Of a DNA stretch of 20,000 bases, positions 3,311 to 19,643 are shown one piece after another. The first letter of the stretch is position 1; each line of letters begins with the position of its first letter. Made by a program: the position numbers and the translations under genes. Origin of the DNA: Catajapyx aquilonaris (Eukaryota); NCBI GenBank assembly GCA_000934665.2, contig KZ538493.1, positions 46,558-66,557 of the forward strand, written 5' to 3'. Below the pieces are notes generated by a model. The model made no database searches. It was not told the origin of the DNA and was given only the letters and a program-made list of their open reading frames with translations.

Positions 3311-4185
3311 TCACTTTTTGTTGCACTGACCACTGTCCAATGTTTTCTGAACCACTGGTGAATCCTGTGCGGCACAACTGGTGAGACGCATCTTTTTAGC
3401 TGATGGACTTTCAGGGCGAGGTGCTGACACTCCTTCGGTTGATGACTGGAAGGAGGAAGTGTTGTACATTTGATTGTAATTGGGTCTAAACGATTCAGAG
3501 TATGAAACTCACCGAAGGAGCCGCTTGAGGTCCAAAGAGTGTTGGTTGGGCATGAGGCCACAGCTTTGTCTTTAACGTCGAGGTGCACTGACTCACATCG
3601 AAGTGGAGTGAGCAAAATGTAGCACGTGGGCGCTTCTTTCCAATACATGCTTGCAGAAGTGAATCACTACAGTTTGCAGCACAGAGCCACTCGCGGCATC
3701 TGCAAGGAAATGAATGGCCGATAATGCTGCAATACATCTTGTTAGACACGATAAATCTCATGGATTAGGTAGTTACAAATAAAACTGGGTGTACGTTATA
3801 TGGTGCATTACAAGAGCATTTTCATTTCAATCACTGAGACTGAGACTGAGAGGAAAATTGTGAGTTTAAAATATAAAGACACACTGTTTACCACTAACCT
3901 GACCTCTGTGTCTTTCATTTTTCTGTTTTACATGCACAAAATTGTTCTTAAAGAGTAAACTAAATTATCTGTGAACAATTGGGAGGAGGGAAACAGTTTA
4001 TTTTTAATCCCAGATTTTCCCAATTTGCTTTGAGATATGGCATTTAAATGTAAGTATAATGATAGCTTTTTCTTACCTTTCCGGATTACCTGGTACTTGA
4101 AAGAAAGACAATTCTGGGCGTTTTTTCTTTGTAGTGTTGCATCCTGGTACCATGCAGGACTGTCCACCTACTGAGTAAGTCCTGA
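3311..4185 (-). CDS. THAP-domain protein module, copy 1 (exons 4185-4077, 3699-3513, 3445-3311; possible start exon ATG 4316)
   Basis: SCMVPGCNTTKKKRPELSFFQVPGNPERCREWLCAANC..FCSLHFDV..LWPHAQPTLF, followed by a tail with NLS-like PSAKKMRL and TGA at 3311-3313. AATAAA on the minus strand near 3125. Confidence 0.83.
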
Positions 4186-4861
4186 CTGAAAAATCGAAGA
4201 AAGAAAAAAAAGGCACTAAGAATAACTTCATTATGGAGTGCCACAAGCCGAGTTATGTTAGGATTGTGCTTGATAATAATACCTCCATTGTATTGGTGGC
4301 GATTAAAACCTGCCATCAAATTCTTCCGAGTCCTTTACATATAAAAAATACCACATCCTACAACAGCAGATGAGTGAACCTTCTGAAACTGCAACTCGAG
4401 ACTGATTAGGAAAGTTTCCCAGAGTGTGCCCGTCACAAAATATAATCTACCCACTGCTATGGGAAGAGAAGCACTGAGTTTCACTGTCCGATCTTTCCAA
4501 TGAAAACTTTCTACTATATTTAAAGGTTGGGTAAAAGAAGCAAGTTTTCATGACCAGTAACGTGAATAGCACTCAGTAGTAATCTCCTTCGCAAGCAACA
4601 TGTACGTAAATACCACCTAGCAGCAAACTCAGGAATTGGAGGGAAAAAAACATTAGACAATAATTATCTGGTTCAACATTGCAGGCCGAACAAATTTATT
4701 ACTCTACAATATATGATGACAAAAACTGATATAAAGCCGTTGCAATAATTGTACATCATGACAGGCAGGCAGGAAGAAAAGGCACACCCATCTAGATTCT
4801 ACAAATTATTTTCCGACATCTGAATTTAAAACTGCCTATCATCTCCTATTTAACAAAAAGT

Positions 4862-5721
4862 CCAGCTAGTTGACAGCCAGTACGATCAATTGCAATTGCA
4901 TATTTAACATTACAAGTAAGCGATACAGTTTACTCCCAACTGTTTTACTGTTTACTGTTTAACACCCAATGTGCGTTACATGCTGCCCCTTCTAATTCCC
5001 ATCTCTTATTGTCATCTCTTTCCAACCTTACATTGCCCAGATATTATCATGCCAGCTGGACATACCCATTCCGATTAGTGCACTTGGCACGATACATGCT
5101 AGAAAGCTACAAATTTTCAAAACCAGTTTGATATGGTGCAAAGGGAAAGTGATAATTTATGGATTACACGGAAAAGTTTCAATCCAGGTCTAGTATTAAA
5201 AGCAACAGTGAATATTCAGCATGCAGTTCTGAATGGAATATCCCTTTTCGCACTTGCTCCTAAATATCGTGGAGTTAAATCGAGGCTAAACTCTAAACAC
5301 GAGGGTTCCATCTTACCCCACATTTTCATGTCTGGCAGTAAAATGACTTTGTACAATATCATACACTATACTAGAGTAAAAACCAGAATAAGTAAAATCA
5401 ATTAATAGCTCTAAAAAGAGGCTGAAAGGGCTCATAAAATCTGCTGATTAGGATCTTTTTCCAACCCAAAATGTCTGTGATAAAAAATTTTGAGGTTAAA
5501 ATTTATTTATTTATTTTTGTTACTGTGTTGGGCTGTATGCCATTGTGGTTAATAACGAGACCTAATATGGCATAAAATTTCACAATGTTACATTTGCCAC
5601 TCATTCTAAGGTTAAAAAGCATCATCCCGTACTTAGCAAAAAAAACCAGCTAGTTTGACGCCCAGTACGATCAATGCCAATTACATATATTTAACATTAC
5701 AAGTAAGCGACAGAGTTTACT
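4862..5721. repeat. ~75-bp direct repeat pair (4862-4934 and 5646-5721)
   Basis: CCAGCTAGTT..CCAGTACGATCAAT..CAATT..ATATTTAACATTACAAGTAAGCGA..AGTTTACT occurs twice, 784 bp apart, downstream of the gene D stop codon. Confidence 0.85.
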
Positions 5722-5755: not shown

Positions 5756-8700
5756 TTATGTACAACCTGTTTGTGAATCCTTCCTCACACTTTGCACACG
5801 AGTATGGCTTCGTGCATGAATTATCAGAGCCCTTTCACGACTAAATCCCTTTCTGCACACATTGCAAGTGTAAGGCCGTATGCCATAATGCACAGCTCGA
5901 GTGTGCGCAGTGAGAGTACTTTTTTGCGTGAATCTCTTCCTGCAGCGTTCACAAGCAAATGGCTTTTCTGCATTGTGTTTTAACTGGCATGCCTTGTGGC
6001 TTCGCATGTGATATTTAAGAGCCCTTCCATGAGGGAATGCACCACCACACACATCGCAATGCTGTATTCCACTATGAAGGCTTTTCAAATGTGCTGTGAG
6101 AGTACTCTTTTGGGTGAAACTTCTTGGACACAAGACGCATCTAAACGGCTTCTCCCCTGTGTGAATTAACTTATGATCCCTTAAATGCCCCTTGTTCTTG
6201 GTGCTGTATGAACACATATCACAGTAGTGCAGCTTTCTGGTACCTGGTTCTGTCTTTGGAATAAGCAGTGCGGACACACCAGCATTGTCTTCCTCACTTC
6301 CTCTTTCCTCACCTGGTTGGATCACATCTGGTGTAAGAATACCAGCTGGTTCCTTTGAACTTCCAGGTTTAGACAAAGCATATCCATGTTCCTCATTGAC
6401 CTCAGCTACAGTGACATGTGACTTAACACATGCTGTAAGTTCAGCTGCTTTAGCAAAAGTCTTCTTACACACTCCGCATTGATAAGTCATCCACGATGAA
6501 CTAGGGTCATTCTGAAATTTAAAAAATATATATTAGCCATCCAATTTTTCCAGAATTTCTCAAAGTACTACTTCAGTTACAGATGTACAAGGAAAGCGTA
6601 ACTAACTTCTTCAACTGCAATTGGGTCAGTTGCTACCGAACTGTTAAAGGAAACGCTGCCAAAGGGATCATCTGGCTCTGATTTGACAGTTCTTCTGGCA
6701 TTCCTCACATGGTCTTGTGATGTTTCAATAGTTCCATCCTCGCAGTCATCCTGCAAGATAATAATTTTTTAAATTTTTTGCATCAAAAAAGCCTGGCTTA
6801 TACCATCCGTCTAAACCGTAAGAGAGAATGACAAATGTTTTTCGGATTCGGATTCAGCGGACCTTAAGTAGGTGTCATGGTCATCTTCCAGTCTGGTTTT
6901 CCGGGTTCACTCCATAGGCCAAGGTCAAGTCTAGCTTTCAATGGGAATGGGCTTGGCAATGGGAAATGAGACTGACATAATTCTATGTCATTACTGTCCA
7001 ATTAGAATCGCATCACATCGTCAGTGTCATTTCCAGTTGCCCAATGAAAAATAAAGCTACCGGTACGTTTACATGCAAGAGATTTCATCAGCGACTGAAC
7101 GAAAGTAACAATCCTGTGGTATCATTTTATTTTCGCCCCCCAAATAATTGGTCTCATCGCTCAGCAATGTACCGTACATCACTGCAACATAGCTGATCAA
7201 ATCGCTCACATGTAAACGTGCCATAAGCTGCGTTTACATATGAGCGATTTGATGAGCTAAGTCTTTGCCGAGGCTGAGTAACCCAAGTAACCAATATTGT
7301 TTGAGGCAAAAATCGATTGTTAATTTCGGCCTCGGTGAAGATTTCGCTCACATGTAAACGAAGCTTTAAGGTGGAAATGAAGCTAGAGTCACTTAATGAG
7401 AATTTTATGAAAAAAACATAATTATGTTACGCAGTTTTACTGTTACGCAGTTAAAACTCCCCACCCCCGTGGGTGCCCCAGTGGTTATTACGTTGCATAG
7501 TCTATGGATAAACATAAAATGCAATTATGTTGCTGCAGAACCATCAAGGATGGAATTTTAATCCCACTGCTATAGTTACTGCTAACTTAGCTATTCCAGT
7601 ACCAACACTGGTACTGCTAAGTTAGAAGTAACTATAGCAGTGGGACGAAATCGACCGTAAATCGTTACCAAGCGCGCGAGAGTCGAGATGGGACCTATGG
7701 CTAGGCACTATGCAAATGGTCCGCAAGAGTGCTGCAAGAGTTTGAACTTTTGGACGGTCACAAAAATACCACGAAACATCACCAACACATATACGTCTCT
7801 CACTTACACATTTTATGTGTTAGTGAGAAGTGAGCAGCGCCAGTAGCACCTTGCGACCGGAACGCCCACTTTTGCTAGGACGCTGAAAATACGGCCCATA
7901 ATACAGGGTGATGTCACGAAATTCGCACATAATCGCCAGGTAGAGTGCCAGAGCGCCAGCCACAAATTATAATCTATCATGACCCTCATCTTCCTCACCT
8001 ACACATTTCCTTACCATTGTCACTTTTTGGTTATATACAGGGTGTATCTGAACTCAGTGCCCCGACGTATATGACTGCCTTCCTAGCCACCAGAGGATCG
8101 ATTGAAGTATAGGAGTCATTATGTCTGGCAGCCGCATTACTGAGATAATTGGCCGCAAACATGTAGTACAAAATATCCTGTCGGTTAGGCCACCCATCGA
8201 ACCCTCCCCCAGTCAGAAGGCTCTGGAAGGTCTGGGGGCGGGACTTTGTTGGTTTGTTGCCCACAGGATGGTGGTAAGGCCTCTTTGGCTATAGTTACAC
8301 CAGAAAATTTTATTTAAAGGTCAGGAGCGATTAGGCAAAAATCGTTAAAGAATGTATCTCAGTAATGAGGCTGCCCAGACATAATGACTCCTCTACATAA
8401 GTTGATCCTCTCGTGGCTAGGAAGGCAGTCATATACGTCGGGGCACTGAGTTCAGATACACCCTGTATACTGGCAGTGTGGAAGATGACTTACTGAAAGG
8501 TAAGGAAAAGAAAAATGAGGGAAAACAAAAAACAAACACGTCAGTTATGTTTCACCCCATTAGGGGGAACTGTGCCATTTTGGGAGGCCGGGGACTACAT
8601 GTAAGATTGTCATTCTTCTCAACAGTGGCACAGTTAGTTCATTTATTGAAGAATCCAACAACTGACTTAATAACTCTCGCTGAATTTGTAACACGTGGTT

Positions 8701-11150
8701 TCCCACTTCCAATATTTTCACTAAGAAAGGCCCAAATGCCTTCCTGCCCCCCATGAGCGAATACGTCTCTGAGCTTGTCTATTGTCACACCTGCTGCAGC
8801 CATCTTGGCTATAATACCCTTAGAAATGGAACCAGCAAGTGGTGCAAGACCCAGTGCAATTTGGGCATTCTTGGCCTTGTCCTGTTGACTGCGCACAAAC
8901 ACTGATAATGGCACACTATGGCTGAGCAATGCACTACCAATGTCCAATGTCTTGCAGACACCTTCTAGTGCTAGCACATCGGAAGTAGCTTCGTGGGCTC
9001 CACTCGCATCATATCCGGCAACATATTTTTCTGCCAGAGCTGACAGCTTGTAGGTGGGCTCCTTCTTCCACTTCTCCTTGTCTTCTTTGTGGAGAGACCT
9101 CATCAGTGGAAGCGTATCAGCCACACCCCATACGACACCTTCAAAACTACTGCCAAGTCCATTGCGCTTCATTGCATCCAAAAGTCTAGGTACATCAAAG
9201 GCAAAAGCATTGTGCCCCGCCAACACAACATTTTCCCCAACACTGCGCAAGAAATCAAGGAACTTCTGCAAAGCATCTTCCACAGGTAATGCCGCCACTC
9301 CTTGACCACGGTGGAAAAGTTCTCCATCCACTACTGAGAGTCCTGTGATGGCACTTGCTGTAGCTGAGATGCTATGGGATGGTTTGGCATATACACTAAA
9401 GGGTGGGGTTCCAGAACCAGCGCATTTACCTGCGACCTGAATAATTTCACAATTCCTGTGAAGCCCAGTAGTCTCGATGTCGAAATACACCAGCACTCTA
9501 TTATCAAGCTCTGGACATGCAGATCCTGAGGGCAAGGTGGAGGCATCAGGGGCCTGAAGAAAGCCAACATCTGCCAGATATGAGACTCCTTCCCTCTGCT
9601 CCATACCTCGCCGTTGTTGGCTTCGTTGCTTCTTCACGAAGAGCCGCCTTGACTTGTATCTTTCTGAATTCTTCAGAATTCTGATCCGGTACCGTAGAGC
9701 ATCTTTTCTTTTCCTAGCTTTCTCTGTCAAGATACCTGGCGACATGGACAGCTTCTTGAAAGTTTGGCTGGAATACGCAGTCTCCAAATTTTTCTGACTG
9801 ACAGCAGCTGCCACACGGCTGTTGAGGCTGGCACTGCCTCCGTAAAACTTTGCCTTGGGAGTCTTGCTGATGACGATGCTATTGAAGCTCTCATTTGCTT
9901 GGCTTGATCCCCCCGGGGCAAGTTTTGCCATCGGCACCTAAGGCGTGAATGAGCTAGTTACGAACTATTCATACTGAATTACGGAAAGTGGACACAGTCT
10001 CTCACCTGCTTCAGCTCCCGTATCACAGCACACAAGCTTCAGAGGCAAGTACGGCACACCAACGCCCCAATTTTCGTGCACACCGGCAGCGGAACCAAGC
10101 AAAATCAGTCGAGAAATACTGCTAGAAAAATCCACCGACTAGCACTAGTTTTTTTCTTCGTCAAACTCCCCCACCCTTGTGGGTACCAGTTCACGAATCG
10201 AATTATTCGAATCCACCGGGCAAAGACGTCACATACTGCTACGCGATAATTGGCCCGGACCTTTGCTGCGTTGCCACTTCTATCTGTCACACGCGTACAT
10301 ACCAACTGAACGTGTTCCAAATCCGACACAAATGAAGAGCTACAAGCACCCCTTTCGGAACTAAACTTTTTAAAATGCCATGACAAATTGGGACCTCGTA
10401 ATTATGACCGAATAAAATCGATTTCCATCCAAAAAAAATAATATTAACCATACCTCTAAATTCCATGAAAATGGCGCCTGCGCACAAAAACTTCCAGCCG
10501 GTAATAGGCCCATATTAAATTGAGTTTAAAACACAGATTAGAATGGAATGCATAGGATTGAACAGCATTTACTGCTGCATCGGTTGCGTATGTTTCCCTG
10601 ATTTTAGCCCTTCTTATTAACATTCCAATTCTAGACTCTCATTTGATTAGCAAGTCGCTTCATTTCCACCTTAAGTAATGCAGAGGAAGCAGGTCATACC
10701 AGGCACACAAATAAGCCTGCAATATTTAAATGCGAGATACGCTAACACAGTCACCTCGGTATATACACTATGCGATGATTGTGTTATGATTCCGTCGGAG
10801 CTTCCTGCTGGAACTGGCCCACTCCGCATGTACTCTTCCGGTAAGAACTCTTGAAGAAATTCTTCACCTCCAGCGCCTTTATGGAGATAATACGAGATCA
10901 GTAAGACATACTGCGACACAGTGACTAATACCCAACCTGCTGCAGGTCGTGTCCTCCTTTCCGTCAGGATGAACCCTTCTATCCTGGCCATCCTTTGGTC
11001 CATCTGAGTCATCCTTTCGTCCATTTCTACCATCCTTTGGTCCATTTCAGACATGGTCCTTTCCATCCGGTCAGTCTGGGCAAGGCTGCGCTCCAGGAGG
11101 GTCACAACGTATGCCAGGCTTGTGTTGGGGAGTGATGATAAGGCGGCCAT
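5756..11150 (-). CDS. Coiled-coil + C2H2 zinc-finger protein, gene D (exons 11150-10937, 10876-10755, 6750-6607, 6511-5756; ~411 aa)
   Basis: The ZF exon has 5 canonical C2H2 fingers with TGEKPF-like linkers plus one C2CH finger. Exon 6750-6607 (..VKSEPDD..) has a clean AG/GT. The exon number and phases (1,0,0) are the same as in genes A and B. The join across the 4-kb transposon-filled intron is inferred from phase and paralog architecture. Confidence 0.75.
7062..7364. mobile_element. Two adjacent small related MITEs (7062-7222 and 7227-7364), possibly PIF/Harbinger-type
   Basis: Ends GGTACGTTTACATG..CATGTAAACGTGCC and GCTGCGTTTACATATG..CATGTAAACGAAGC. The facing ends form a 29-bp inverted repeat with 2 mismatches (7190-7218 vs 7231-7259). 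TSDs are unclear, so the superfamily is tentative. Confidence 0.6.
7562..7645. repeat. Near-perfect 84-bp hairpin
   Basis: 30-bp arms TCCCACTGCTATAGTTACTGCTAACTTAGC / GCTAAGTTAGAAGTAACTATAGCAGTGGGA (1 mismatch), with an inner stem CAGTACCA-acac-TGGTACTG. Confidence 0.85.
8038..8465. mobile_element. Tc1/mariner-type MITE (428 bp) nested in the TTAA element
   Basis: TA|CAGGGTGTATCTGAACTCAGTGCCCCGACGTATATGACTGCCTTCCTAGCCAC ... exact reverse complement ..CACCCTG|TA. TIRs are ~110 bp and the TSD is TA. Confidence 0.92.
8639..9937 (-). CDS. DEDDh (DnaQ-like/TREX-like) 3'-5' exonuclease with PML/Plex9-like C-terminus, preceded by a transposase C-terminal remnant (terminal exon, 432 aa)
   Basis: ExoI LVYFDIETTGL, ExoII LAGHNAFAFDV and ExoIII AHEATSDV are all intact. 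The tail ISKGIIAKMAAAGV..L..GGQEGI..L..GKPRVT resembles the region following the exonuclease fold in PML-like proteins. The N-part KLAPGGSSQANESFNSIVISKTPK..RVAAAV is typical of metazoan 'Mutator-like' transposase C-termini. Acceptor CCTTAG at 9938; a 68-nt intron lies upstream (10005-9938). Confidence 0.88.
   Translation of the reverse strand: MPMAKLAPGGSSQANESFNSIVISKTPKAKFYGGSASLNSRVAAAVSQKNLETAYSSQTFKKLSMSPGILTEKARKRKDALRYRIRILKNSERYKSRRLFVKKQRSQQRRGMEQREGVSYLADVGFLQAPDASTLPSGSACPELDNRVLVYFDIETTGLHRNCEIIQVAGKCAGSGTPPFSVYAKPSHSISATASAITGLSVVDGELFHRGQGVAALPVEDALQKFLDFLRSVGENVVLAGHNAFAFDVPRLLDAMKRNGLGSSFEGVVWGVADTLPLMRSLHKEDKEKWKKEPTYKLSALAEKYVAGYDASGAHEATSDVLALEGVCKTLDIGSALLSHSVPLSVFVRSQQDKAKNAQIALGLAPLAGSISKGIIAKMAAAGVTIDKLRDVFAHGGQEGIWAFLSENIGSGKPRVTNSARVIKSVVGFFNK
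10989..11051. repeat. 3 x 21-bp tandem repeat encoding coiled-coil heptads
   Basis: CATCCTTTGGTCCATCTGAGT / CATCCTTTCGTCCATTTCTAC / CATCCTTTGGTCCATTTCAGA, encoding SEMDQRM VEMDERM TQMDQRM. Confidence 0.9.
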
Positions 11151-12602: not shown

Positions 12603-14971
12603 TCAAGATCGAGTGTGGCTTGCACTTGCTGTATGAAGGCGTCGCACATGCACATTCATGTTATGCTTCAAGGTGAAAGTACGATTGCAAAATTGACAAG
12701 AATATGGCCTTTCTCCAGTATGTTTGCGCAAATGCTTAATCATGTCAGATTTTGCAGCAAAACGTTTATGGCAGACATGGCAAGTGAATGGTTTCACACC
12801 TCCGTGAACCATTCCGTGATACTCCAGCTGCTGATAGTAGCTGAAAGCCATCCCACACACCTCACACTTGTAAGGTTTTAAACCAAGGTGAACAGCTTTC
12901 ATATGAACAGATTGATAATATTTTGTGGTGAAGCTGGCACCACATAATTTGCAATAAAATTTTGTTTGACTCTCTCCTGGATGGAAATCATCACGTGCTG
13001 AATGGGCCAACTGATGAGAAGCAAATTCTCCCTTGCCATTGGTAGCATATGAACAGACTTTGCAACAGAATAAAGCAGGTTTTGCAGCCCCTTTCTCTAC
13101 CTTTCCTTTCCTCTTGCATCTTTCTTGGGTACACTCAGTCTCAATTGCCTGGAGATGATCTGGAGATGCACTTCCTCCAGAGTATTCACCCTGTACCACA
13201 AAGATGTTTTGTTGTCCTGACTGAGACATGTCCATAACCTCCTCTTCTTGTTTAACTATCACTTCATGAGACTTGATGCATTCTTCTAGAGCAGATGGAT
13301 TGTGGAAAGTTTTGTTGCAGATGCCACATTGAAAAGGGTCCCTGGATGGCAGCTGGCTCTTTGGAAAGAAATGGATAAATATTAGTGTCAATCAGTCATG
13401 AAAATCCTGAGATGCTGTAATTAACTTGAAAACTTTATAATAAGCAAGGCCATGCCCCCCAATTCTTCTGATTTCTGCCAGCTTAATTATTGTGTCGTGG
13501 TCCTATAATAACACTTTGCGCAACCCACCAATCTCCTCCTGTCCGCACTATTTTTATTACAAGCATCATCCCAGGAATAATGTAGTTGCTCCAAGGCAGT
13601 ACACTCACATCCTGATGCCCAGGCGGATGCAATTCCACTTGTCCATTGAAGGAATCATTCACATCATTACTCCGGTAGAGGGATGGGTTTTCAGCCACGC
13701 AGCAATCAATATCGGACCTGCTTCCTTCAGTTTGTCGCGTCAGTAATTCAGTCATCTCTTGCTTCCAGTTTTCCTAAAGGAAAATAACATCATTAATTTC
13801 AATGTGAAGCAGCAAAATGCCTCTCCATTGCAACATGTACAAGTGCTTCAATCAAATGATTTAATTCAGCAATACTTCTGTAGGCTTATGGTTCACTCTC
13901 AAATACTCTTCTTTTCACTAAACAAGTTTGAACAAGTTATTTATAAATCTTGGGAAACAGATGGCTGTGTCATACCTTAACCATGGAACCGGGACGTAGG
14001 GTATTTAGGACCCCAAAGGAAGTAAAAATGCAAAATGCATCGCAATGAGTGACCTTGAAACGATAATGACCTAAAACTCCGTGTATTCCTTAAAAAAACT
14101 TAATTTCATGGATCAAATCTGGTTTCATAATTTTCACACCTACCAAAATGTACATAAGTCGTTGTTTTTGGACCCATGCTCTCGTGGGGTCCAAAAGGAG
14201 ACCCACGTCACGGTTCGGGGCATACACGAAAGAAAACTCTCCACTAGAAAATTAAACTGTTGCCATTTTCAAAAACAGTATATAACAGAAAGTGCATGTT
14301 TATTTTGAATTAGCGATCATTTTATACATTGTTCAAAGAATGATTGCATGTAGCCAACACATTGAAAAGTATTATCAAAAAATTAATAAAAATAAAAATA
14401 TGGCATGTCACGGTTAATGTCACTTTCAGGCATTTCACGATTCCAGGGTTAACACCACAAAGGCCAAACCCATGATCTGAAATGCAGCATCATACGACAC
14501 CGACATTTGCTTAATCTACCATAATAATCCTCAGAAGAATTACAGATGAAGCTTACCTCCACCTCTAAAGTGTGGTTCACTAATTCAGGCTGTCCAAAAA
14601 GTGCCCCATGCATGTCAAAAGTAGCAGAAGTTCCTTGATGAACTGGTAGATGCTGCTCTGACAGACCTTCTTCAATAGTCGTATCAGAGCTTCTTTCATG
14701 ATGCACTTCTGTAGGGGGTAAAGAGTAAACGGTATTGTATACTTTACAACAAAGACAATAGGGCTTGAATTCCCAACTCAGAGCTACACCTAACCTTCAT
14801 CATGAGTTGTCTTCCTCTTCCCTTCCTCTTCCCTCAGGATGAACCCTTCTATCCTGGCCATTCTCCTGTCCATATCCGCAATGGTCCTCTCAATCCTGCC
14901 AGTCTGGGTCAGGCTTCGTTCCAGGAGGGACACAACGTGGGGCACAACAAGGTTGGTTGTTGGGTGGCCAT
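12603..14971 (-). pseudogene. Coiled-coil + C2H2 zinc-finger gene B with 5' frameshift (exons 14971-14795, 14708-14557, 13773-13609, 13358-12603)
   Basis: Exon-for-exon paralog of gene A. Exon 1 is 177 nt vs 175 nt: an extra TG near 14944 gives TGA at 14909-14911 after 20 codons. The other exons and splice sites are intact, with one C2CH and five C2H2 fingers. An in-frame ATG at 14873 could rescue a shorter protein. Confidence 0.75.
13981..14448. mobile_element. piggyBac-like MITE in intron 2 of gene B
   Basis: TTAA|CCATGGAACCGGGA ... TCACGATTCCAGGG|TTAA (11/14 TIR match), with internal GGACCC/GGGTCC motifs. Confidence 0.68.
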
Positions 14972-15074
14972 GTCCTCCTCAGCAATATTCCAACAAGCGG
15001 TCCTTCAGCAGGGAATGGAAATGGGAGGAAAAGGAAGCGATGGCAGAAGAAGGAAAGAAAAACCAGAACTAGAC

Positions 15075-15298: not shown

Positions 15299-18124
15299 TC
15301 ACGTTGTCGTATGAATACGTTGCACATGCAGAGTCATGGCATGATTCCAGGTGGATTTATGATTACAAAATGGGCAAGAACATGGCTTCTCTCCTGTATG
15401 TTTACGCAAATGCTTCTTCAAATCAGATTTTGTAGCAAGACATTTAAGGCACACGTGACAACTGAATGGTTTCTCACCCGTGTGGACCATTCTGTGACGC
15501 TTCAGATCATGAGATTTGCTGAAAGCCTTCTCACATACCTCACATTGGTAAGGTTTTAATCCAAGGTGAACAGATTTCCAATGATCTGATAAAGAGTATG
15601 TAGTGGTGAAGCTGGTACTGCACAATTTGCAGTAATATTTTGATTCACTCCCTTCTGGACGGACCTTACCATGCGCTGAATGGGTCAGCTGATGAGAAAC
15701 AAATTCTACCTTTTCATTGGTAGCATATGAACACACTTTGCAACAGAATGAAGCAGGTTTTTTGGCCCCTTTCCCTCCATTTTCTTTCCTTCTGCATCTT
15801 AATAGGGTCCTCACAGTCTCATTTGCCTGGAGACGCTTTGGAGATGCACTTCCTCCAGATGTTTCTCCTTGTACCACAAAGCTGTTTTGCTGTCCTGAGT
15901 GAGCCTGCATAACCTCCTCTTCCTGTTCAACTTTCACTTCATGGGACTTGATGCATTCTTCCAGAGCAGATGGAATGTTGAAAGTCTTGTTGCAGATTCC
16001 ACATTGAAAAGGGTCCCTGGATGGCAGCTGGCTCTTTGGATAAGAATGGATAAAAATTACTATCAACCAGTCATGATAATAATCCTAAGATGCTTCTGTA
16101 AATAACTTGCACACTTTATAATAAGGGATAAAGATTATCCATCCCTTCCAATTCTCCACGTTGGAAGAAATCCACATGATCGCTTATGTTTGAAATACAG
16201 ATTTCACCCCTTCTGATCCGTCTTTCCTGCAATTCATTAAGCTAATTATGCCATGTACATCCTTACAAACTTTTGCTTCCTTCCCTAAACCAGCAGGCAG
16301 GCAGAATAAATTGAAGCAAGCTGCACAAAATTTCCGCTGCCATTATGACACTTTTGGCAGCATGATGTGTCATAGTCCTACTGCAACAGTCTTCCCAGCC
16401 CACTAATCCCCTCCTGTCCACATTATTTCTCTTCCAAGCAGCATCCCCATAATCATGCATAATGTAGTTGTCCCGAGCCAATACACTCACATTCTCATGT
16501 CGAGATGCATGCAATTCCACTTGTCCACTGAAGGAATCACTGGCTTCATGACTCTGGTGTAGGGATGGGTTTTCAGTTACACAGTCAACAGTCACATCAA
16601 CGCTTCCGTCATATTCTCGTGTAGGTAATTCTGGCATATCCTGCTTCCAGTTTTCCTGCAAGAAAATAACTCCTTTAGTTTTAATGTAAAGCAGAAAGAT
16701 GTCCTTGCATTGTAATATGCACATATCATCCAACAGGAACACACAACAATTTTTTGTGACTATGAAACACTTTGGTACAATCAAATGTCAGCCATAAGGC
16801 ACATTCATAAAACCACTTCTTTTTTTAAAAACTTTAACTGTATAATTTTTTTAACAATGTTGCAGGAAACTGAAATGGATTTGTGAATGGACCTTGAGCC
16901 AGTCAACATCCCAAAGGCCTAACCCATGCACAGTGTGTCCAAATGCGGGATTGCTTGCACAACAATGGAAAAAGCAAATTGGCCGAGTCCTGTCAAATCT
17001 GCCCTAACGTAAGAAATTAATGTCCGAACAATAATAAGAATTTCTTTGGTAGGTTCCATTGATAAGGGTTTTATACCAGGCAGGTATACTCATGTCGAGT
17101 GTTTGCCTGCCACCGTTTTGTGCATATTCAGTCAACTTCTAATGGTCACGGAAGAAAGGTCACCGCATTTCCACATTCAGGCTCATCAGGATTTTGAGCT
17201 GCGCATAAAATACCTCTGGCTAAGTAATACTAACTCTCTTGCAGCAATTTGAATGTGACCTTGAAATGTTGGCAGCAGTGGTTCTTTTGTTGAGGATTGC
17301 ATTATGCGCATATCATAACATTCCTCTCATTTTAAAGACGAAAAAGTGGATTTCACAAAATTTCACTTCAAATCACACATTAAAAGAAAGACTAGACTCC
17401 CCAGGTATAGATTAATTCGTTTCAATGTGGTCACATTTTTCTAAAAGGAGGTCAGATTTGTCAAGGGAGCAGTTTGCTACCCTGACGAAATAGGTGCATG
17501 AATCTATCATCACAAGGTCGAATGTAATCGTTCCTTCTGTGCGTCAATGTGAAATGCGCTACTTTTGTCTTAAAAATCAGAGGAAAGTCGTGACAAATAC
17601 GCTTGGAAGTGGGAGCCATTGTCCAAGCATTCACGCATTTGGGCCACACTGTGCCATGGCCTGAAATGCATCGGCATGCCACCCTGACACTCGCCGGATA
17701 ATTATGACATCTGGAGCAGAATGCTTACCTCAACCTCTAGAGGGTCGTTCACCGCTTCCGCTTGCCCCAAGTTCCCTCCGAGATTATCCAAACCTGGGCA
17801 GGTCCCTCGATGTAGAAGCTGCTCCGATTTGCAATCTTCAACCGTAATATCATAGCCTCTCTCATGATGTAGTTCTGTAGGGAATAGACGGTATTGCATA
17901 TGTTCCCACAAACGCAATGGGCATAAATAGGGCTTGAATTCCACCCAACCTGCATCATCAGGTGTCCTCTTCCCTCCCTCCTGTTCCTTCAGGATGAACC
18001 CTTCTATCCTGGCCATCCTCCTGTCCGTCTCTGCAATGGTCCTCTCAATCCTGTCATTCTGCGCCAGGCTTCGTTCCAGGAGGGACACAATGTGGGGCAA
18101 CCAGGTTGGTTGTTGGGTGGCCAT
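15299..18124 (-). CDS. Coiled-coil + C2H2 zinc-finger protein, gene A (exons 18124-17950, 17874-17729, 16655-16491, 16033-15299; 406 aa)
   Basis: Canonical GT-AG sites, phases 1/0/0, open throughout: MATQQPTWLPHIVSLLERSLAQNDRIER.. / ELHHERG.. / ENWKQDMP.. / SQLPSRDPFQC.. with one C2CH and five C2H2 fingers and TGEKP linkers. Confidence 0.87.
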
Positions 18125-18250
18125 GTCCTCCTCAGCAGTGCCACCAACAAGCAGGGCAGTCTTGAAGAGGGGAGAATGATGAGCCAGTGTCCAGAGGAAG
18201 GGAGGAAAACGAAGCGATGAGATGAGAGAAGAAAAAGAAAGACAAGAAAA

Positions 18251-18311
18251 AGACGCCATGCTGGGCGCATTCGGTTCGACGCCACTTTACCTCCAAAGAA
18301 CTGTTCAAAAT
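18251..18311 (-). promoter_or_regulatory. Conserved 5' block of gene A
   Basis: Same block as 15075-15135; lies only ~140 bp from the stop codon of gene C, whose AATAAA is at ~18426-18431 on the minus strand. Confidence 0.55.
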
Positions 18312-18452: not shown

Positions 18453-19190
18453 TCAAGTTGTTGTATGAATACGTCGCACATGATTAGTCATGTTATGCTT
18501 CATCGTGAACTTACGATTGCAAAATTGGCAAGAATATGGCTGTTCTCCTGTATGTACACGCATATGTCTAATCAATTCATATTTTGTAGCATGACATTTA
18601 AGGCACACGTGACAACTGAATGGTGTCTCACCTGTGTGGGCCATTCTGTGACGTTTCAGATGCTGATTTTGGGCAAAAGTCCTCCCACATACCTCACATC
18701 CATAAGGTTTTAACCCAAGATGAACCGCTTTCATATGAATAGATCGAGCGTAATTACTGCTGTAGCTGGCACCACACAATTTGCAGTAAAACTTTGCTTT
18801 ACTACCTCCTGGACGGACCTTACCATGCGCTGAATGGGTCAGCTGATGAGAAACAAATTCTACCTTGTCATTGGTAGCATATGAACACACTTTGCAACAG
18901 AATGACGCAGGTTTTTTGGCCCCTTTCTCTCCCTTTCTCCTCCTCTTGCATCTCAATAGGGTCCTCTCAGTCTCATTTTCCTGGACATGCTCTGGAGATG
19001 CACTTCCTCCAGATGATTCTCCCTGCACCACAAAGCTGTTTTGTTGTCCTGAGTGAGAAACCTGCATAACCTCCTCTTCCTGTTCACCTCTCACTGTATG
19101 CGACTTGACACATTCTTCCAGAGCAGATGGAATGTTGAAAGTCTTGCTGCAGATGCCACATTGAAAAGGGTCCCTGGATGGCAGCTGGCT
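18453..19190 (-). CDS. Terminal zinc-finger exon of paralog gene C (upstream exons not in window)
   Basis: Acceptor TCCAAAG|AGCCAG as in genes A and B; one C2CH and five C2H2 fingers; TGA at 18453. Flanking intron 19190-19420 is homologous to 16034-16280. Confidence 0.87.
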   Translation of the reverse strand, partial: SQLPSRDPFQCGICSKTFNIPSALEECVKSHTVRGEQEEEVMQVSHSGQQNSFVVQGESSGGSASPEHVQENETERTLLRCKRRRKGEKGAKKPASFCCKVCSYATNDKVEFVSHQLTHSAHGKVRPGGSKAKFYCKLCGASYSSNYARSIHMKAVHLGLKPYGCEVCGRTFAQNQHLKRHRMAHTGETPFSCHVCLKCHATKYELIRHMRVHTGEQPYSCQFCNRKFTMKHNMTNHVRRIHTTT

Positions 19191-19643
19191 CTTTGGATAT
19201 AAATGGATAAAAATTAGTGTCAACCTGTCATGATAATCCTAAGATGCTTCTGTAAATAACTTTCACACTTTATAATCCCTTCCAATTCCCCAAGGTCTAA
19301 GCAATCAACATGAGCATTATGTTTTAAATGCAGTTTTTACCCCTTCAAACCCCCTATTTTCTGCAATTCATTAAATATTAAGCTCATTAATCCATGTACT
19401 ATCCGTTGCAAAAACTTTCGGTCACTTCGTCCTGACTCTTTCATTCATCCGGGGTCTTGAAGCAACACTTCACACATGCCCCCAAGGTAAGGAGGGGTGT
19501 GTTTGTGACTGTATGTCTGTGGTTATCTGCTGAGTTTTTTTTACTCCACCCTTAATCTCACATTCTCCCTCGGCGCCCGCTCGCTTGTCTTTGTAACCAG
19601 AAATTCAAGTACGACACCAAATATTATGGTTTTATTTTGCTGA

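Follow-up and report, generated by a model that had tools for sequence, protein, structure and literature searches.

An internally deleted transposon copy, probably KolobokD, with an open exonuclease frame in Catajapyx aquilonaris

A 20,000-nucleotide stretch of the Catajapyx aquilonaris genome (assembly GCA_000934665.2, contig KZ538493.1, positions 46,558 to 66,557 of the forward strand; hereafter the window, in whose coordinates all positions are given) contains an element with terminal inverted repeats (TIRs) and TTAA target-site duplications (TSDs). Inside it lies a stop-free open reading frame (ORF) of 432 codons for a DEDDh exonuclease. This locus raises two questions: where in a transposon such an exonuclease belongs, and why its frame is still open. 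A previous, sequence-only reading had answered that a non-autonomous element distributes the nuclease as cargo. Our analysis indicates that positions 7370-10670 are very probably a single copy of a KolobokD DNA transposon, from the Kolobok superfamily, that has suffered internal deletion and is unable to move alone; the exonuclease in it would be the remaining tail of the transposase itself. Regarding the open frame, we lean slightly towards some constraint on the ORF.

Anatomy and copy number of the element

The limits of the element (7370-10670, 3,301 bp) were obtained by direct reading of 7200-10900 and by an inverted-repeat search. In the latter, pair I8 was complementary over 18 of 18 nt, with TTAA plus GGTGGAAATGAAGC at 7366-7383 and the exact reverse complement plus TTAA at 10657-10674. 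By our own estimate, the chance of a perfect inverted pair of 18 nt in 4 kb is about 1e-4. The TIRs are flawless (28 of 28 bases) and the TTAA is unaltered on both sides; the TTAA duplication and perfect 14-bp TIRs noticed in the sequence-only reading are thus both present, and its approximate 730 bp between the right TIR and the ORF measures 733 bp (10670 minus 9937). No second copy of the termini was found within the 20-kb window, nor an inner partner TIR for either end. The features of the element, including two nested miniature inverted-repeat transposable elements (MITEs) in its 3' part and a match to a profile hidden Markov model (HMM), are as follows.

7366..7369, no strand: TTAA target-site duplication, left (direct reading, pair I8)
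7370..7383, minus strand: 3' TIR in gene orientation, GGTGGAAATGAAGC; element termini GG...CC (direct reading, pair I8)
7557..7650, no strand: nested hairpin-type MITE, 94 bp, arms of 44 nt, 86% complementary (inverted repeat I2)
8034..8469, no strand: nested Tc1/mariner-like MITE, arms of 95 nt, 94% complementary, ends TA-TACAGGGTG...CACCCTGTA-TA (inverted repeat I1)
8639..9937, minus strand: intact 432-codon ORF, ATG at 9931-9929, read as the 3' half of a KolobokD transposase gene (ORF list, Pfam, alignments)
8645..8830, minus strand: PML_C (SAM-like) C-terminal domain (Pfam PF25244)
8969..9490, minus strand: DEDDh 3'-5' exonuclease domain (Pfam RNase_T; matches to PDB 9l8b and 9mrc; residue check)
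9608..9721, minus strand: basic linker, residues 73-110, 18 of 38 being K or R by our own count; resembles a nuclear localization signal and may act as one (translation, alignment)
9764..9928, minus strand: end of the DDE domain, KLAPGGSSQANESFN..., with the third catalytic E (profile HMM of 100 relatives, 79 bits, 1.2e-25; alignments)
9938..10093, minus strand: decayed transposase remnant between the HxxC..WC zinc-finger motif and the E motif (position matrix; unseen by the HMM)
10196..10656, minus strand: 5' subterminal region, common with a high-copy MITE-like family (summed contig depth, loose contig ends)
10657..10670, minus strand: 5' TIR (direct reading, pair I8)
10671..10674, no strand: TTAA target-site duplication, right (direct reading, pair I8)

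The ORF (8639-9937, minus strand) has no stop in its 432 codons, and its ATG is codon 3. Using Pfam, we detected RNase_T at residues 150-323 (5e-10) and PML_C (PF25244) at residues 370-431 (7.8e-10; 39.3 bits, above its cut-off of 27.1), together with a match to Exu_RNase_H_like (1.6e-4) that, at 22.8 bits, stays under its cut-off of 27. The DEDDh set is complete (D153, E155, D248, H315 and D320), and each of the 15 columns with a conservation of 90% or more among 150 relatives is retained. Both the ORF list and the residue check therefore bear out the earlier description of a stop-free frame with every D-E-D-H-D residue. At its 3' end (8639-8650) the ORF reads AAT AAA TGA, with a canonical AATAAA poly(A) signal overlapping the last two codons.

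The ORF opens exactly at SSQANESFN, the third catalytic motif of the transposase, and the homology of the relatives to the window begins at KLAPGGSSQANESFN in every alignment. We take this SxQxNES-type stretch to be the last catalytic motif of the DDE domain, of the kind known from MuDR/Kolobok-type transposases; in the relatives it comes after the DxNH and HxFGxHxxCGxWC motifs, a placement that supports the identification. Since the ORF starts at the third catalytic motif, it very probably represents the 3' half of the gene for a KolobokD transposase. Its product corresponds, judging from the alignments, to the C-terminal 48% of the transposase: last catalytic motif, basic linker, exonuclease and SAM-like tail.

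Upstream of the ORF, the coding sequence is in ruins. The 52 codons of 9938-10093 are interrupted by two in-frame stops and by one or more frameshifts, and profile HMM searches of all six frames of the element gave no transposase remains beyond the E motif and nothing upstream of 9928, in line with the claimed loss of the DDE core. What is left is a relic of the zinc finger: 'SAAGVHENWG' begins at 10093, and the next WC requires a one-base shift. With a position matrix of 100 relatives and one frameshift allowed, this relic scored 13.7 bits, mostly from WC, and was the top site in 9938-10670; none of 300 shuffles (the best reaching 13.3) and none of 42 other window chunks matched it. The frameshifted HEN.G.WC-like relic of the sequence-only reading thus stands, and its spacing to KLAP is 51 codons, compared with 49 in the family consensus. 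That reading had also placed it in a broken mini-exon (10006 to about 10095). A GT...AG pair for such an arrangement exists (10005-9938, 68 nt), but once it is excised, relic and ORF no longer share a frame. Because splicing breaks this frame and the spacing fits contiguous coding, we read 9938-10093 as probable contiguous, decayed coding DNA instead of an exon plus an intron.

To estimate how often each part of the element occurs, we summed contig depth from three runs of one sample and one small run of another, at 85% likeness or more; such summed depth is not equal to copy number, and copies diverged beyond 85% likeness would be missed. Unique flanks gave depths of 24-36 (about 29). The ORF gave 28.8-34.2, and the whole of 8504-10173, which comprises ORF and relic, 28.8-44.5. 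One 1.8-kb contig covers 8444-10254 without differences, spanning ORF and relic, and an identical 324-nt piece (8591-8914) is present in the second sample. The ends behave otherwise. Summed depth reaches 8,000-45,000 over 10174-10674 and about 14,000 at 7419 in the left end, where the high-copy zone extends to about 7438, and loose contig ends at 7438, 10196, 10237 and 10466 mark the points at which other copies depart. Hence, the termini belong to a high-copy MITE-like family, and the ORF-bearing form is single at this likeness. Contigs of the two samples yielded no several gene-bearing copies with the same TIRs: 8504-10173 is at single-copy depth and only the termini are repeated. The proposal that the element is 'distributing' a nuclease is not borne out, as ORF and relic lie on one contig at flank depth; nothing is distributed, because only the ends of the element belong to the high-copy family.

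Other repeats were observed in and around the element. The MITE at 8034-8469 belongs to an extremely abundant family, with a summed depth of 35,000-133,000 against about 29 for unique DNA. For the MITE at 7557-7650 the summed depth is around 14,000 against the same 29, and 44-46 contigs run off at 7650. Short inverted-repeat elements with arms around TCGCTCACATGTAAACG cluster at 7187-7366, adjoining the left TTAA; their depth, taken with that of the 7557-7650 MITE, is 14,000-22,000. Finally, a AAACTCCCCACCC-like direct repeat, about 30 nt long by eye, is found at 7454-7467 and 10163-10176. It flanks the unique interior near the departure points of other family copies, and may have served as microhomology for MITE-forming deletions.

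The exonuclease in transposases and in host proteins

An exhaustive search of 1.84 billion representatives returned 2,361 relatives of the ORF at E<=1e-3 and 185 at E<=1e-30, the best being 41% identical. Seven of 8,000 scored candidates are near-length relatives, and six of these carry PF20700 ('Mutator-like transposase') N-terminal to the exonuclease. PF20700 is also found in both of the longer relatives, including a 904-aa protein from the hemichordate Ptychodera flava; this protein and a 940-aa thrips protein hold all parts in a single chain. Using a local HMM, we detected the transposase part in 119 of 166 relative proteins, and by tblastn it lies directly upstream of the exonuclease, on the same strand, in 29 of 33 related metagenome loci, which had been found from a 7-row alignment. 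The order in the polypeptide is Kolobok-type DDE transposase (PF20700), basic linker, DEDDh exonuclease and PML_C, with motifs in the order D...CxxC..HxC...DDD...DxNH...HxFGxHxxCGxWC...SxQxNES. A midpoint-rooted tree that kept 140 of 150 rows, read without regard to support values, places the ORF beside P0001 and P0010, both of them transposase-fused. Because the relatives hold transposase and exonuclease in one polypeptide, the exonuclease is the transposase's own C-terminal tail and not captured cargo. The view of it as cargo gives way to these counts and to the third catalytic motif that the ORF itself keeps.

Some relatives depart from this layout. P0048, P0076 and P0092 (Anabrus simplex) and P0028 and P0101 (fish) have no transposase part and carry two to four tandem exonuclease domains; one example is 1,333 aa long with four matched stretches. 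Such proteins suggest repeated duplication of the module after its release from the transposon. In addition, at least ten of the 150 best relatives (P0002, P0031, P0041, P0082, P0087, P0089, P0109, P0122, P0131 and P0136) start within about 30 residues of the KLAP/E-motif boundary of the window ORF. This shared start could stem from an exon boundary that is conserved or from truncation that recurs at one point, or it could be an artefact of how ORFs were called.

Regarding the lineage, the Kolobok superfamily is defined by TTAA duplications and 5'-RR...YY-3' termini, those of piggyBac being CC...GG (PMC9587614). In KolobokD, the lineage named in that work (Kojima and Bao, Mob DNA 2022), the encoded exonuclease is a DEDDh enzyme of DnaQ type that resembles Exuperantia, TREX and ERI1. 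Transposases of Kolobok and KolobokD are marked by a DxxH signature and by two zinc fingers, of which the CCHC one follows the first D and the other lies between the second D and E; KolobokD is known from molluscs, arthropods and cnidarians (PMC9587614). The same paper covers autonomous families, and deletion derivatives or MITEs are absent from its main text. The window element shares with KolobokD the TTAA duplication (7366-7369 and 10671-10674), the RR...YY ends (GG...CC) and a DEDDh exonuclease encoded with a transposase, as seen from the domains of the ORF and from the fusion in its relatives. The relatives also show DxxH and two zinc fingers, in a motif order that agrees with the published description of Kolobok and KolobokD (PMC9587614), and the published phyla are those that dominate the nearest relative clusters here, to which our relatives add a hemichordate. 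The full set of a DDD/E transposase with DxxH and zinc fingers, which the relatives possess, was not found in the window copy: it has no DDE core, and the last catalytic motif, the exonuclease tail and a broken finger relic remain. By this anatomy it is evidently a derivative and not an autonomous member. Kolobok had been among the transposase classes guessed from the letters, and the TTAA, the GG...CC ends and the relatives' motif order fit that guess.

TTAA-flanked ends were seen in two related loci. L028 (433-6056, about 5.6 kb) is a full-length relative with ends TTAA-GGACAAGC...GCTTGTCC-TTAA, likewise of the RR...YY type; its transposase part lies at 1882-2664 and its exonuclease part at 3838-4926, and the roughly 1.1 kb between them may be an intron or an insertion. 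L014 (1029-2971) has a transposase/linker gene fragment within TTAA plus CCTAGCTTTCAAAA ... TTTTGAGACCTAGG plus TTAA, matched at 12 of 14 positions and with the left end duplicated.

Several points weigh against the assignment to KolobokD as a single copy. It is made from the published description of the lineage, and Pfam names the transposase domain of the relatives 'Mutator-like', not Kolobok. The ends of L014 are of the TTAA plus CCTAGC...CTAGG type, not RR...YY. A TTAA/GG...CC pair was seen in one of ten longer loci, most contigs ending too near the gene to tell, and a strict test for TTAA plus 14-nt TIRs in 20 related loci gave only the CC...GG-type pair of L014, again with most contigs stopping too close to the gene. 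A TSD alone cannot tie the two ends to one insertion, because Kolobok always duplicates TTAA. Lastly, the depth comes from the contigs of one sample (the second being small), and more diverged copies escape the 85% threshold.

Outside transposons, the exonuclease resembles Plex9-type structures far more than TREX1 or TREX2. In a single-sequence search, the closest solved structures were entries labelled 'exodeoxyribonuclease III', namely 9l8b (1.7e-26), 9l85 and 9mrd/9mrc (about 1e-19 to 7.6e-18), with TREX1 and TREX2 reaching only about 2e-6 to 7e-5. The family profile gave 1.4e-74 and 7.5e-59 for 9l8b and 9mrc, versus 8e-23 for Exuperantia (5L80), 3e-17 for TREX2 and 3e-17 to 1e-8 for the TREX range. 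This profile includes two named fish rows, and an unnamed row, P0062, groups with them in the tree; the single-sequence search was free of fish rows. In both searches, then, the DEDDh domain is nearer to Plex9 than to TREX. 9MRC is zebrafish Plex9.1, and the EXO/SAM arrangement is common to PML-I and Exuperantia, as stated in PMC13659232; our literature search found no paper describing PDB 9L8B or 9L85.

The likeness to Plex9 (exon 9 of fish PML-like genes) and the C-terminus of PML-I comprises the DEDDh fold with its catalytic residues and PML_C, and the earlier claim of kinship is supported by Pfam PML_C (7.8e-10) and PDB 9mrc (7.6e-18). In contrast to Plex9 and the other PML exon-9 exonucleases, which are stand-alone host genes of jawed vertebrates, the window ORF has a transposase motif, sits inside TIRs and groups apart from the fish clade: in the tree it falls with transposase-fused proteins, while P0028 and P0101, whose tandem exonuclease domains come without the E motif or PML_C, form a separate clade. 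Restriction of L1 by Plex9 is an assay result on fish proteins. Drosophila Exuperantia (PDB 5L80) shares with the ORF an exonuclease-like domain followed by a SAM-like one, reflected in the Exu_RNase_H_like match, but has lost the DEDD residues (PMC13659232), all of which the window ORF retains. TREX1 and TREX2 are DEDDh 3'-5' exonucleases like the ORF, cited as functional analogues in the papers named here; they are much more distant and have no SAM-like tail or transposon context. The sequence-only reading had stated that Plex9 is reported to be transposon-derived. The main text of PMC10123124 contains no transposon, transposase, Kolobok or domestication wording, so that this statement finds no backing in the literature we searched, and our literature search found no stated link between Kolobok and PML or Plex9.

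Host setting and state of the reading frame

The element lies among tandem paralogous C2H2 zinc-finger units on the minus strand (5756-6490, 12603-13391, 15299-16066 and 18453-19223), whose N-terminal exons (10731-11123, 14533-14983 and 17705-18259) each contain a MARIEGFI-type heptad-like stretch. The protein database held no close relative of the flanking zinc-finger ORF, the best being 38% identical. The N-terminal exon beside the element is the following.

10755..11123, minus strand: N-terminal coding exon of a zinc-finger-family unit, predicted from conservation among three units, with a GAG/GT donor in phase 0

This GAG/GT donor is conserved among the three units, and in the third it falls at 10755/10754, in phase 0. 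From the comparison of paralogues, the element is predicted to lie in sense orientation within the intron of a zinc-finger gene.

The anatomy, the homology, the single-copy depth of the ORF and the high-copy termini that we observed fit the following account. A complete KolobokD transposase is one protein, in which a DDE core with zinc fingers of the CCHC and HHCC kinds is followed by the basic linker, the DEDDh 3'-5' exonuclease and lastly PML_C, a SAM-like domain. Its exonuclease module would trim 3' DNA ends during transposition, a role proposed in the paper that named the lineage (PMC9587614). The window copy has lost all that lay upstream of the HxxC..WC finger and had its next 52 codons wrecked, with the frame kept intact from SSQANESFN to the natural stop. 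Translated from the ATG at codon 3, the product is predicted to act as an exonuclease of the Plex9/TREX type, metal-dependent and with 3'-5' polarity, and to be inactive as a transposase for want of both catalytic D residues. The MITE-like family with the same termini probably arose from the same element family through larger deletions.

Two other accounts of the element fare poorly. A non-autonomous family that spreads the nuclease as a defence or competition factor would profit from the intact nuclease and from termini common to a high-copy family, which imply that the TIRs are or were mobilised. We nevertheless consider it improbable, since the interior (8504-10173) forms only a single-copy contig at 85% likeness or more and the exonuclease is native to the transposase. 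More improbable still is a host exonuclease gene caught between unrelated MITE ends, or a piggyBac element. TTAA is obligatory for any Kolobok or piggyBac insertion, so the two ends are not tied to each other by it; against this stand the transposase E motif and zinc-finger relic in the interior, and neither end has an inner partner TIR. As for piggyBac, it would account for the TTAA, but the termini are GG...CC versus CC...GG (PMC9587614, main text), and the relatives carry PF20700, Pfam having given no other transposase family.

This leaves the state of the KolobokD derivative itself. It could have died recently, being a young product of deletion whose frame has simply not had the time to decay, without selection or function; this has a substantial chance of being correct, somewhat under even. 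The perfect TIRs (28 of 28) and the two intact TTAA are as expected from it. The ORF agrees with 95 of 112 family-conserved columns, ranking 20th of 131, as a fresh copy of an active element would; this rank is flattering, as the set had itself been picked for similarity to the ORF. Among its neighbours in the tree, the nearest are transposase-fused proteins and not a host-gene clade; at 2% divergence, with assumed indel ratios, a frame would still be open with a chance of 3-15%. Recent death sits badly, on the other hand, with the adjoining 52 upstream codons, which have two stops, at least one frameshift and no profile similarity right before 432 clean ones, and with the two MITEs inserted since in the 3' part. 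Moreover, by our own count the right end is unlike the family majority at no fewer than 19 listed sites in 315 nt (10226-10540). If this difference reflects age (4-6%), the chance of an open frame drops to about 3e-3 to 2e-5; it may instead be a subfamily difference. Alternatively, selection may have retained the ORF as a Plex9-like exonuclease, either standing alone or fused to a host protein, perhaps through splicing to the zinc-finger-family exon in a case of transposase capture; taken as a whole this appears unlikely, in spite of some evidence in its favour. The boundary of conservation is sharp at the first codons of the ORF, the 15 near-invariant residues are all retained, and the depth is the same as in the flanks, which is what a homozygous single locus would give, with the identical 324-nt piece in the second sample. 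The element lies on the strand of the host unit, 80 nt past the conserved phase-0 donor, and an AG acceptor (9939-9938) directly precedes codon 1; because of this phase-0 donor and the AG immediately before codon 1, a host-exon fusion would be in frame. In the capture model, the acceptor lies right before the transposase ORF in eight of nine cases (10.1101/2020.05.07.082677). Such a fusion is a predicted layout only, with an acceptor picked by eye, and phase agreement alone occurs by chance once in three. Besides, the ORF clusters with active-looking transposases, and its protein has none of the DNA-binding N-terminus of the transposase.

As a transposon remnant, the element is ordinary: a further derivative, formed by deletion, of a lineage that received its name in 2022. 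What makes it interesting is whether the ORF is under constraint, together with an unstated connection of KolobokD to PML and Plex9, for which the homology itself, as judged from sequence comparison, is strong. In the host-gene view, translation of the ORF would start at its own ATG, or else splicing would join the ORF in frame to the phase-0 donor found 80 nt ahead of the element. The layout would then be the point from which transposase capture sets out: a pristine ORF in single copy, preceded by a wrecked stretch, lies in sense within an intron and has an in-frame acceptor. The host-transposase fusion genes of 10.1101/2020.05.07.082677 share with it a sense DNA transposon in a zinc-finger-gene intron and an acceptor right before the ORF; here it is the genomic layout that was observed. 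We think it doubtful, though conceivable, that a KolobokD exonuclease/SAM-like module is becoming a host gene at this locus, selected after loss of the core, by a route that may lie behind Plex9, the PML-I tail and Exuperantia. According to these comparisons, the Plex9/PML-type exonuclease with its PML_C tail is the native C-terminus of a widespread animal transposase. This gives a concrete proposal for the origin of the PML-I tail and Plex9, and perhaps of Exuperantia, an origin not stated in the portions of the literature that our search covered.

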